A stretch of 64,000 bases of DNA, from assembly GCF_055900595.2 (NCBI RefSeq), contig NZ_CM148325.1; one strand, written 5' to 3'. Below are positions 5,351-29,877 of the stretch, in pieces. The first letter of the stretch is position 1. Every line of letters begins with the position of its first letter. Under the pieces are notes generated by a model. It searched no databases, had not been told where the DNA came from, and saw nothing but the letters and a program-made list of their open reading frames with translations. A program made the translations under genes and the position numbers.

Positions 5351-6202
5351 ATGAGTAGTTTGTTGTTGTTTAACGATAAGAGCAGGGCATTGCAGGCGGA
5401 TATCGTCGCCGTGCAGTCGCAGGTAGTGTACGGCAGCGTAGGCAACAGCATTGCCGTGCCTGCTATCAAACAGAACGGCCTGAATGTCTTTGCCGTGCCG
5501 ACGGTATTGCTGAGCAATACGCCGCATTATGACACTTTCTACGGTGGTGCGATTCCGGACGAATGGTTTAGCGGTTATTTGCGTGCGCTTCAGGAGCGTG
5601 ATGCGCTGCGCCAGCTGCGCGCTGTCACCACGGGCTATATGGGAACGGCATCGCAAATCAAAATCCTTGCCGAGTGGCTGACTGCGCTACGCAAAGACCA
5701 TCCTGACTTATTGATTATGGTCGATCCGGTGATTGGCGATATTGATAGCGGAATTTATGTCAAACCTGACCTTCCTGAGGCATACCGACAATATTTACTG
5801 CCTCTGGCGCAGGGTATTACGCCTAATATCTTTGAGCTGGAAATCCTGACCGGTAAAGATTGCCGCGATCTCGACAGTGCCATTGCCGCAGCAAAAAGTC
5901 TGCTTTCAGACACCTTAAAATGGGTGGTCATTACCAGCGCCTCCGGTAACGAAGAAAATCAGGAGATGCAGGTGGTGGTGGTCAGTGCCGACAGCGTGAA
6001 TGTCATTTCCCATTCTCGGGTAAAGACGGATCTTAAAGGAACAGGCGATCTGTTTTGCGCCCAGCTTATCAGTGGCTTGTTGAAAGGTAAGGAATTAACT
6101 GACGCGGTACATAGCGCGGGATTACGCGTGCTGCAGGTGATGCGCTATACCCAGCAGCATGGTAGTGATGAATTGATTTTGCCGCCCCTGACGGAAGCAT
6201 AA
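5351..6202 (+). CDS. pdxK: Pyridoxal/pyridoxine/pyridoxamine kinase PdxK
   Basis: 283 aa, ribokinase-like PL kinase family sequence; position adjacent to crr. Confidence 0.93.
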
Positions 6203-12414: not shown

Positions 12415-14439
<2,025 letters not shown>

Positions 14440-16708: not shown

Positions 16709-17473
16709 TCAGAAATTAAATTTGATGGAGTAGATTATCGCATCCTGGTAAAAATCTTCGCCCAGTTTGTCATCCGCATAACGATACTGAATCCCTGTGG
16801 TGATGTGTGAAGTTGCATTCCACCAAAGTGCGACGGCACCGTTCAGACCTTCTTTGCCGCCATTACCTGCCGCGTAGGTGGCATCACGATCAAACTCGTA
16901 CTCGTTCCAGTTGGTGAGGGTGAATTTCTCACTGCCCAGCATAAAGCTGTAACCTGCAACCCAACCGGCGACATAACCGTTATCGCCGGTATAATAGGTT
17001 TGGTCTGTATAGCGTTTTGCAAAGAACGGTTTGAACCACCAACCGCTGCCGGTGAAATTGTAGCCGATCCCGTAAAGGAACATATCGTCATGGAAATTCA
17101 CACGATTCGCAGAACCGTAGGTGCCATACGCATGCAAGTAGAGATTAAATCCGGTGTCACCCAGGTAAATACGGTTGGTATTTTTAAATGTATAACGCTG
17201 CTCGCTACCCTGTTTATCATGACGATCATTATAAAAGTTTTCCCAGTCGAAGAACCCGTACATTTCTCCCCAACTAAAGTTAGCGCCGCCTTCCAGTTCC
17301 AGATATCCAAAATCATCTTTGTGTGATTTGGTCGACGATTTCTCAGTGGTTCTGCTAGTCCAGTCAAGATAATGAATACCTATATCAGCAAAACCGCCTT
17401 TAAATTCTGCATGGGATACTGCTGGTATCGCCAATACAAAAGAGAGTGTCAGAGTAAAAAGATGTTTTTTCAT
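16709..17473 (-). CDS. yfeN: Tsx-family outer membrane channel homolog YfeN
   Basis: 254 aa, signal peptide, aromatic-rich beta-barrel pattern ending in terminal F. Confidence 0.85.
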   Translation of the reverse strand: MKKHLFTLTLSFVLAIPAVSHAEFKGGFADIGIHYLDWTSRTTEKSSTKSHKDDFGYLELEGGANFSWGEMYGFFDWENFYNDRHDKQGSEQRYTFKNTNRIYLGDTGFNLYLHAYGTYGSANRVNFHDDMFLYGIGYNFTGSGWWFKPFFAKRYTDQTYYTGDNGYVAGWVAGYSFMLGSEKFTLTNWNEYEFDRDATYAAGNGGKEGLNGAVALWWNATSHITTGIQYRYADDKLGEDFYQDAIIYSIKFNF

Positions 17474-27100: not shown

Positions 27101-28303
27101 TTACAGCACCAGTGCTGCGATTGACGCAGACAGCACACTCACCAGAGTAGAGCCGTAAACCAGTTTCAGACCGAAGCGAGAAACCACGTTACCTTGTTCT
27201 TCATTCAGGCCTTTAACCGCACCGGCGATAATCCCGATAGAAGAGAAGTTAGCGAAGGAAACCAGGAACACAGAGATGATGCCTTCAGCACGCGGAGAGA
27301 GCGTGGAAGCAATTTTCTGCAGATCCATCATTGCAACGAACTCGTTGGAAACCAGTTTGGTCGCCATAATACTGCCCACCTGCAGTGCTTCACTGGAAGG
27401 AACACCCATCACCCACGCAACCGGATAGAAGATGTAGCCCAGGATGCCCTGGAAGGAGATGCTGTAGCCAAACCAGCCAGTCACAGTGGCAAACAGTGCG
27501 TTCAGCGCAGCGATCAGGGCGATAAAGCCGATCAGCATCGCGGCAACGATAATAGCAACTTTGAAACCTGCCAGAATGTATTCACCCAGCATTTCGAAGA
27601 AGCTCTGACCTTCGTGCAGGTTGGACATCTGAATGTTTTCTTCACTGGCATCAACACGGTAAGGGTTGATCAGTGACAGCACGATAAAGGTGCTGAACAT
27701 GTTCAGTACCAGCGCCGCAACGACGTATTTCGGCTCCAGCATCGTCATGTATGCACCAACGATGGACATCGACACGGTGGACATCGCCGTAGCTGCCATG
27801 GTGTACATACGATTGCGGGAGATTTTGCCGAGGATATCTTTATAGGCAATAAAGTTTTCAGACTGACCCAGAATCAGAGAGCTGACGGCGTTGAAGGATT
27901 CCAGTTTGCCCATACCGTTGACTTTGGAGAGCAGGAAACCAATTGCGCGGATAATCACCGGCAACACGCGAATGTGCTGGAGAATACCAATCAGCGCAGA
28001 GATAAAGACGATTGGGCACAGCACTTTCAGGAAGAAGAATGCCAGGCCTTGATCATTCATGCTACCAAAGACGAAGTTAGTCCCTTCGTTGGCAAATCCG
28101 AGCAGTTTCTCAAACATTTCGGAGAAGCCTTTCACGAAGCCCAAACCAACGTCGGAGTTCAGGAAGAACCACGCCAGTAACACTTCGATAACAAGCAGTT
28201 GAATAACATAACGGATACGAATTTTTTTGCGGTCGCTGCTTACCAGCAGTGCGAGAATCGCAACAACGGCAAGTGCCAGTACAAAATGAAGGACGCGGTC
28301 CAT
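27101..28303 (-). CDS. nupC: Nucleoside:H+ symporter NupC (start trimmed to MDRVLHF)
   Basis: 400 aa from trimmed start; concentrative nucleoside transporter family membrane profile. Confidence 0.95.
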
Positions 28304-28395
28304 ATTTGCTCCAAATATGAGGCAGGTTAAATTTCCGTGCACATTCTATGTAACATGGTTAAGGAAAACGAGATCTGACACACACTATAATGACG

Positions 28396-28433
28396 TCCTG
28401 TGACAAGCTTCAAAAATAGTGAGCTGTCATACA
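28396..28433 (-). promoter_or_regulatory. Two tandem CRP-like sites upstream of nupC (CytR/CRP-type promoter architecture)
   Basis: tgtgaCAAGCTtcaaa (28399-28414) and agtgaGCTGTCataca (28418-28433) approximate TGTGA-N6-TCACA. Confidence 0.3.
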
Positions 28434-28570
28434 TTTCTGCTATGTTGTGTATGGAAGCTGAAAGTTATGTAAATGTGCTAACATTAAACATAATCACAAC
28501 ATTCAAGTCATCAATCTTTTCGTCGTCATAGTTCTGGTCTTTCAAAGAAATCATCACAATCCATTTAAAT

Positions 28571-28589
28571 GAATTTGATAATCATTCTC
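28571..28589 (+). promoter_or_regulatory. Fur box upstream of mntH
   Basis: gaatttgataatcattctc matches the 19-bp Fur consensus GATAATGATAATCATTATC at about 15 of 19 positions. Confidence 0.45.
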
Positions 28590-28604
28590 GTTTGACATAG
28601 CATG

Positions 28605-28626
28605 AAACATAGCAAAGGCTATGTTT
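28605..28626 (+). promoter_or_regulatory. MntR operator upstream of mntH
   Basis: Perfect palindrome AAACATAGC-AAAG-GCTATGTTT ending 13 nt before the mntH ATG. Confidence 0.6.
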
Positions 28627-28629
28627 TAG

Positions 28630-29877
<1,248 letters not shown>

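Follow-up and report, generated by a model that had tools for sequence, protein, structure and literature searches.

The mntH promoter and operator region of an Escherichia coli chromosome and its separate sites for metal-sensing regulators

The region around positions 28571-28626 of the DNA analysed here, a single stretch of 64,000 nucleotides that we call the window, is in our judgement almost certainly the promoter and operator of the E. coli mntH gene, with independent sites for metal-sensing regulators. The inputs of iron, manganese and probably peroxide on one importer gene could be read correctly from the raw sequence. The dual repression of mntH by Fur and MntR is already known, having been published in 2001-2002; a 2001 paper of Patzer and Hantke (J Bacteriol 183:4806) is said to have the dual repression of mntH by Fe2+-Fur and Mn2+-MntR as its title. 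The sequence reading agrees with the published binding data, and it brings nothing new on the control of mntH itself. The first-pass annotation, which was made from the sequence, had proposed this dual metal control, with manganese acting through MntR and iron through Fur. The proposal is borne out by ChIP-exo data, by the recurrence of the motif at other genes, by conservation, and by open papers stating that MntR:Mn and Fur:Fe each repress mntH.

The window belongs to an E. coli chromosome, and the 501 bases round the operators are 100% identical to several complete genomes; this region was found in 5424 of 5426 genomes. The identity of the downstream gene, called mntH from the beginning, is confirmed by the NCBIfam model NF001923 (MntH), which scores the open reading frame at 28639-29877 at 623 bits (cut-off 430), and the RefSeq annotation in E. 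coli genomes concurs. The divergent neighbour is nupC, at 27101-28303, and the intergenic region between the two genes is 335 bp long with 35% G+C. From the Fur box to the start codon, the elements read 5'-GAATTTGATAATCATTCTC-gtttgacatagcatg-AAACATAGC-AAAG-GCTATGTTT-tagaggcacaag-ATG. The features of the region are the following.

28528-28564, no strand assigned: OxyR-like activator site, ATAG-N7-CTTT-N7-ATCA-N7-CCAT, from a consensus match and a conserved block.
28569-28595, plus strand: truncated remnant of ypeD, 8 codons and TGA (29 aa in K-12), from the K-12 annotation b4819 and alignment.
28569-28600, no strand assigned: equivalent of the K-12 Fur ChIP-exo peak P75, by coordinate conversion via the K-12 alignment.
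28571-28589, no strand assigned: Fur box GAATTTGATAATCATTCTC, from its match to the consensus (15/19), its 7-1-7 motifs and its conservation.
28575-28580, plus strand: predicted -35 hexamer TTGATA, inside the Fur box, from a promoter consensus scan.
28597-28601, plus strand: extra ATAGC half-site, 12 nt upstream of the left ATAGC of the inverted repeat and overlapping the -10.
28598-28603, plus strand: predicted -10 hexamer TAGCAT, from the same scan.
28605-28626, no strand assigned: predicted MntR operator, AAACATAGC-AAAG-GCTATGTTT, from the inverted repeat, a matrix score and conservation.
28628-28632, plus strand: Shine-Dalgarno sequence AGAGG, 6 nt before the mntH ATG, read from the sequence.
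28639-29877, plus strand: mntH, Nramp-family Mn2+/H+ importer of 412 aa, from NCBIfam NF001923 and the RefSeq annotation.

The promoter that we favour is the pair TTGATA-17-TAGCAT, which matches the promoter consensus at 9 of 12 positions and whose predicted -35 hexamer overlaps the Fur box. The sequence TTGATAA is present in all of the 81 Enterobacteriaceae sequences compared (see below); TAGCAT is present in 52 of them, the remainder having TAGCTT, TAATAT, TAACAT and similar hexamers, and the two elements are conserved at a spacing of 16-17 bp. Such a sigma-70 promoter would be expected to start transcription near 28609-28611 and to give a leader of about 30 nt. In this strain the A at 28595, which is a G in K-12, also makes a perfect TTGACA (28592-28597) between the Fur box and the -10; because no plausible -10 lies 16-18 bp downstream of it, this hexamer probably has no role as a promoter.

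We should also weigh the possibility that the working promoter lies further upstream and is served by the same operators, with ATCACA (28553-28558) as its -35 and GATAAT (28577-28582) as its -10. In that case the -10 would lie under Fur, and the MntR repeat (about +15 to +36) would serve as a roadblock. The pair ATCACA-18-GATAAT likewise matches the consensus at 9 of 12 positions, with both hexamers inside conserved blocks. However, a spacer of 18 bp is less favourable, its -35 would be wholly overlapped by the OxyR-like site, and the TAGCAT just 5' of the repeat is itself kept at 16-17 bp from TTGATA. The layout that Kehres et al. reportedly described in 2002 also has Fur at the -35 and the repeat past the -10. 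We therefore regard the upstream pair as unlikely to be the working promoter, and take TTGATA and TAGCAT as the promoter in what follows.

A published table of E. coli transcription start sites lists two weak starts, which lie 147 and 186 nt before the mntH ATG (5 and 11 reads), and it has no proximal start near 28610; the promoter may have been repressed in the cultures used. The transcripts from the weak starts, which correspond to about 28492 and 28453 on the plus strand, would cross both operators and include the start of ypeD. The same table has a start on the nupC strand at about 28651 (minus strand), inside codons 4-5 of mntH.

The element assigned to MntR is a perfect 9+4+9 inverted repeat. 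Its arms, AAACATAGC at 28605-28613 and GCTATGTTT at 28618-28626, are fully complementary, and no outward extension is possible. It had been described in the first-pass annotation as a 22-bp perfect palindrome that ends 13 nt before the start codon. The perfection of the 9-nt arms stands, but the AAAG in the centre (28614-28617) is not self-complementary, so that the element is not a strict 22-bp palindrome; its position stands as well, with 12 nt lying between the repeat and the ATG at 28639, the figure of 13 being a count from end to start. Perfect 9-bp inverted repeats with spacers of 0-8 nt are not rare in the window: there are 31 seed positions, which fall into about 16 distinct repeats, mostly terminator-like. 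By simple arithmetic, chance alone would give about 2 in the window and about 0.01 in the 335-bp intergenic region.

Further evidence on this element comes from other genes. The literature names mntS, mntP and dps as MntR-regulated alongside mntH, and the K-12 regions carrying these three genes (13 kb) were scanned with the mntH repeat at a threshold of at least 14 of the 18 arm positions. The scan returned exactly four matches, each upstream of one of the genes named in the literature.

K-12 dps: one MntR-type site, 46-67 bp upstream of the dps ATG.
K-12 mntS: one MntR-type site, across the annotated 5' end of rybA/mntS.
K-12 mntP: two MntR-type sites, about 400 bp before the mntP ATG and 40 bp from each other.

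The sites at mntH, mntS, mntP and dps share the core ATAGC-N4-GCTAT, with GCTAA in place of GCTAT at one of the mntP sites. With a symmetrised matrix made from the mntS, dps and two mntP sites, the mntH repeat scores 26.8 bits, the maximum possible being 30.4. No other position in the window scores above 13.6 bits, and on 100 randomised 64-kb sequences the maximum averaged 13.0 and never exceeded 19.6. A matrix scan of this kind had been put forward early on as a check, and its outcome favours MntR, with the reservation that it is partly circular, since the training sites were themselves found with the mntH pattern; the positions of these sites before the expected genes are free of this circularity. 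A search of the full-text literature for the repeat sequence returned no relevant match. Taken together, the recurrence of the motif, its conservation and secondary citations point to MntR as the protein that binds 28605-28626. The K-12 mntR gene (b0817) is annotated about 1.66 Mb from mntH, and for this reason it was not expected in the window.

The conservation of the region was examined at 80 mntH loci from different Enterobacteriaceae species, and 79 sequences were aligned over the 200 nt that precede mntH. The inverted repeat is found at the same place in all 80 of these loci, its core preceding the ATG by 27-31 nt (46 nt in one locus). The mean identities to the window, over 79-81 sequences, are as follows.

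Distal intergenic DNA: 0.40.
OxyR-like block: 0.64.
Fur 19-mer: 0.92.
The 8 nt from the Fur box to the -10: 0.48.
-10 hexamer: 0.93.
Inverted repeat: 0.955.

Both operators are thus conserved among the 80 species while the flanking DNA is not. In the Fur 19-mer, 14 of the 19 columns are at least 95% conserved among 79 species, and the Shine-Dalgarno sequence is kept as (A/G)GAGG or GGGG. A comparison of nine diverse E. coli gives a similar picture: variation is found in the spacer that separates Fur box and -10, the inverted repeat is invariant in all nine, and the Fur 19-mer is invariant in eight, the lone change falling on the central N of a 7-1-7 motif.

The two arms of the repeat differ in how strictly they are kept. 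The left arm is invariant in 81 of 81 sequences and the AAAG spacer is kept in 80; the right arm varies at three positions, reading GCTATGTTT in 22 sequences, GCTATATTT in 43, GCTATATCT in 12 and something else in the other 4. The right arm that gives perfect symmetry, GCTATGTTT, is confined to Escherichia, Salmonella, Citrobacter and Kluyvera. With 22 of 81 sequences carrying it, perfect symmetry therefore marks a single clade, and it is not required of an MntR site.

This pattern of variation also bears on whether the inverted repeat could work as RNA, that is, as a hairpin in the mntH leader with control over translation or elongation, instead of as a DNA site to which a protein binds. If 28600-28645 were fully transcribed, it would form a hairpin with 11 bp and -14.2 kcal/mol (z = -4.6), the end of which lies a few nucleotides before the Shine-Dalgarno sequence, and transcripts from the weak starts at -147 and -186 would include the whole of it. 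Transcription from the predicted proximal start, however, would leave a 5-bp stem of -6 kcal/mol (z = +0.8). The G-to-A change in the right arm is never compensated in the left arm, so that 59 of the 81 species would have a C.A mismatch in the middle of the stem, the right-arm A facing the invariant left-arm C. Copies of the motif are also found before mntP, where the DNA is untranscribed, and across the promoters of dps and mntS, and there is no terminator-like site at mntH and no Rfam family above threshold. These observations make a hairpin with a regulatory role very unlikely and agree better with a DNA site for MntR. A permissive search of 28000-29000 for the yybP-ykoY Mn2+ riboswitch or any other Rfam family found none; it returned noise from snoRNA models at 12-20 bits, below gathering scores of 40-75. 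A riboswitch in the mntH leader is thus unsupported by that search.

A small open reading frame shares the same DNA. In K-12 the 29-aa ypeD is annotated over the equivalent of 28569-28658, that is, over the Fur box, the -10 and the MntR repeat, and a ribosome-profiling study lists it among small open reading frames with putative homologues in Salmonella and Citrobacter koseri. It could be argued from these data that the conservation described above reflects the coding sequence of YpeD instead of operators. Yet the frame is cut to 8 codons in this strain by a TGA at 28593-28595 (TGG to TGA, the changed base being 28595), and it has the same length in other E. coli lineages, where codon 9 is TAA; it is cut to 8 codons in other Escherichia too. 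In most genera the open reading frame has 11 codons, or 23-31 codons in a shifted frame, while the DNA blocks are conserved throughout. The PGAP annotation of an identical strain has no ypeD and gives in its place a 14-aa "hypothetical protein" at 28602-28646. We consider a coding origin of the conservation very unlikely. The reported conservation of YpeD in Salmonella and Citrobacter is most simply the conservation of the operators, and it serves as a caution that this annotated small protein looks conserved mainly through the conserved operators over which it is encoded.

The Fur box is the element for which the published binding data are most direct. The 19-mer GAATTTGATAATCATTCTC (28571-28589) is identical to the Fur consensus GATAATGATAATCATTATC at 15 of 19 positions, and it carries overlapping 7-1-7 motifs, matching at 12 of 14 positions at 28576-28590 and at 10 of 14 at 28570-28584. 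The description of a Fur-like 19-mer upstream of the repeat is upheld by this match; the gap to the repeat, given earlier as 16 nt, is 15 nt. Three sites in the 64-kb window, both strands included, match the Fur consensus at 15 of 19 positions or better, where Markov-1 randomisations give an expectation of 0.26. The probability of one such match in a composition-matched intergenic region of 335 bp is 0.005 by simulation.

A ChIP-exo study of Fur in nine E. coli strains reported in K-12 MG1655 an intergenic peak, P75, at 2510767-2510798, which was assigned to mntH and detected in iron-replete cells only. We converted this peak with the NC_000913.2 numbering, in which the mntH coding sequence is 2509490-2510728 with its ATG at 2510728, and with a gap-free alignment of K-12 and the window. 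The peak spans 39 to 70 nt upstream of the mntH ATG, or 28569-28600, and it encloses the 19-mer; K-12 and the window have no gaps and no differences over 28566-28594. An information-theory model of Fur, derived from footprinted sites, likewise places a two-site cluster of 19.9 bits at mntH -56, which is position 28583 in the window. The first-pass annotation had proposed comparison with published footprints and a scan with a Fur matrix, and on the Fur side the ChIP-exo peak and the published information-theory model lead to the box at 28571-28589. Expression data are available as well: mntH is among the 36 core Fur regulon genes common to the nine E. coli strains, it is de-repressed in their fur mutants (log2 change of 1.16-3.30), and an mntH-lacZ fusion is repressed by Fur. 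That the 19-mer is an accidental likeness in AT-rich promoter DNA, as its four mismatches to the consensus and the 35% G+C of the intergenic region might suggest, is hardly tenable against the composition-matched simulation, the ChIP-exo occupancy, the information-theory score, the Fur-dependent expression and the near-invariance of the 19-mer in 80 species.

Several other Fur-like sites came to our attention. The remaining two matches in the window at 15 of 19 or better, at 12472-12490 and 17368-17386, lie within the long open reading frames 12424-14439 (plus strand) and 16709-17473 (minus strand), and are probably chance matches or else weak sites. Another Fur peak from the published ChIP-exo data, P76, which was found in iron-replete cells and has no transcription unit assigned, converts to 28294-28323, over the start codon and ribosome-binding site of nupC; this stretch contains a 7-3-7 palindrome, ATATTTG-CTC-CAAATAT, at 28302-28318. 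Upstream of mntP in K-12 (locus L004, 2266-2401), a Fur-like site with 14 of 19 matches lies about 50 bp past the two MntR-type repeats, and it coincides with the published "yebN -300" Fur cluster and with ChIP-exo peak P58.

Just upstream of the Fur box, the block at 28528-28564 is likely a third input, from OxyR, which was absent from the earlier reading. The putative site matches the consensus ATAGnTnnnAnCTATn7ATAGnTnnnAnCTAT at 14 of the 20 specified positions. Nothing else in the intergenic region scores as high against this consensus (P = 0.027), and the site shares first place in the 64-kb window. In 62 of 79 species the highest-scoring stretch before mntH likewise falls at the homologous position. 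Conservation is poor in the fourth tetrad; the CTAT tetrad is elsewhere strongly kept from genus to genus. This strain carries ATAG..CTTT at the site, as opposed to ATAA..CTAT in eight other E. coli examined. The induction of mntH by OxyR is stated in open papers.

From these elements a simple scheme for the control of mntH can be drawn. When iron is plentiful, Fe2+-Fur on the 19-bp box, as its binding in K-12 indicates, would cover the -35 region and keep RNA polymerase off the promoter, because the box contains the predicted -35 hexamer. When manganese is plentiful, a dimer of Mn2+-MntR, a member of the DtxR family and a repressor of mntH according to the literature, would occupy 28605-28626. 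The repeat fills the interval from the -10 to the ribosome-binding site and lies over the predicted start, so that initiation would be blocked. One of the two repressors should be enough by itself. The Fur core and the repeat are 29 bp apart in 54 species and 30 bp apart in 25; since this spacing differs by 1 bp among genera, a required contact between the two proteins is unlikely, and Fur and MntR probably act independently, without fixed contact. Under peroxide stress, in keeping with the induction reported in the literature, OxyR at its putative site upstream of the -35 would activate the promoter.

It is worth considering whether the inverted repeat is the whole of the MntR site. In K-12, an extra ATAGC in the same orientation is found 12-13 nt upstream of the left ATAGC at mntH (N7), dps (N7) and mntS (N8), the loci other than mntH being at about 1958-1991 and 6055-6090 of locus L003; it is absent at the two K-12 mntP sites. 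At mntH the extra half-site is moderately conserved: of 81 species, 42 have an exact ATAGC and 68 have NTAGC, and in Salmonella it is a full AAACATAGC copy. ATAGC or GCTAT occurs about 1.9 times per kb in the window, and three such coincidences among five sites have an estimated chance of less than 1e-3, with generous offsets allowed. The G and C of the -10 hexamer TAGCAT, which are unusual for a -10, are kept in about 85% of the 81 species. On this basis one may propose that the MntR-repressed promoters mntH, dps and mntS share an operator of three half-sites, ATAGC-N7/8-ATAGC-N4-GCTAT. We offer the proposal, which comes from motif comparison, as a speculative one that is probably wrong. The extra ATAGC of dps may belong to an OxyR site instead, and the mntS promoter is wholly conserved in six Escherichia, Salmonella and Citrobacter genomes, in which mntR served as the anchor, which leaves a test of the half-site there without power. 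If the proposal were true, a further MntR subunit or dimer would contact the -10 during repression, in an arrangement absent from the activating mntP sites.

The closest system for comparison is the mntH promoter of E. coli K-12, which is the same locus; the window is 98% identical to it over 391 aligned bases. No base differs between the two in the Fur 19-mer, the -10, the inverted repeat or the Shine-Dalgarno sequence. The single change in the operator region falls in the spacer between the Fur box and the -10, at 28595 (A here, G in K-12), and several bases of the OxyR-like region differ, with ATAG..CTTT here and ATAA..CTAT in K-12. The mntH promoters of Salmonella enterica subsp. arizonae and diarizonae have the same order of OxyR-like site, Fur box and inverted repeat, and their 22-bp repeat is the same. 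On its 3' side (ATTATC) the Fur box of Salmonella is nearer to the consensus, and the extra half-site there, as mentioned, is the full AAACATAGC. In the work of Kehres et al. (2002, J Bacteriol 184:3151) on Salmonella mntH, a Fur motif is said to lie over the -35, with an OxyR motif just upstream of that hexamer and an inverted repeat in the interval from the -10 to the ribosome-binding site. This layout is also that of the elements in the window.

The other MntR sites of E. coli, at mntS, mntP (two sites) and dps, were reportedly the subject of papers by Waters et al. and Yamamoto et al. in 2011. They share with the mntH site the ATAGC-N4-GCTAT core and the A/T-rich flanks, and agree with it at 14-15 of the 18 arm positions; perfectly symmetric 9-nt arms are found only at mntH. 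The mntP sites differ further in that they lie about 400 bp upstream of the ATG, are activating according to the literature, and have no extra half-site. In the wider DtxR/MntR family, of which the MntR of B. subtilis is an example, the protein, as a dimer loaded with metal, recognises an AT-rich inverted repeat, about 20 bp in length, which overlaps a manganese importer's promoter. The mntH operator appears to share this plan of an AT-rich inverted repeat with the other operators of the family, while the sequence of its half-sites, as far as can be judged from the DNA, would be specific to the enterobacterial protein.
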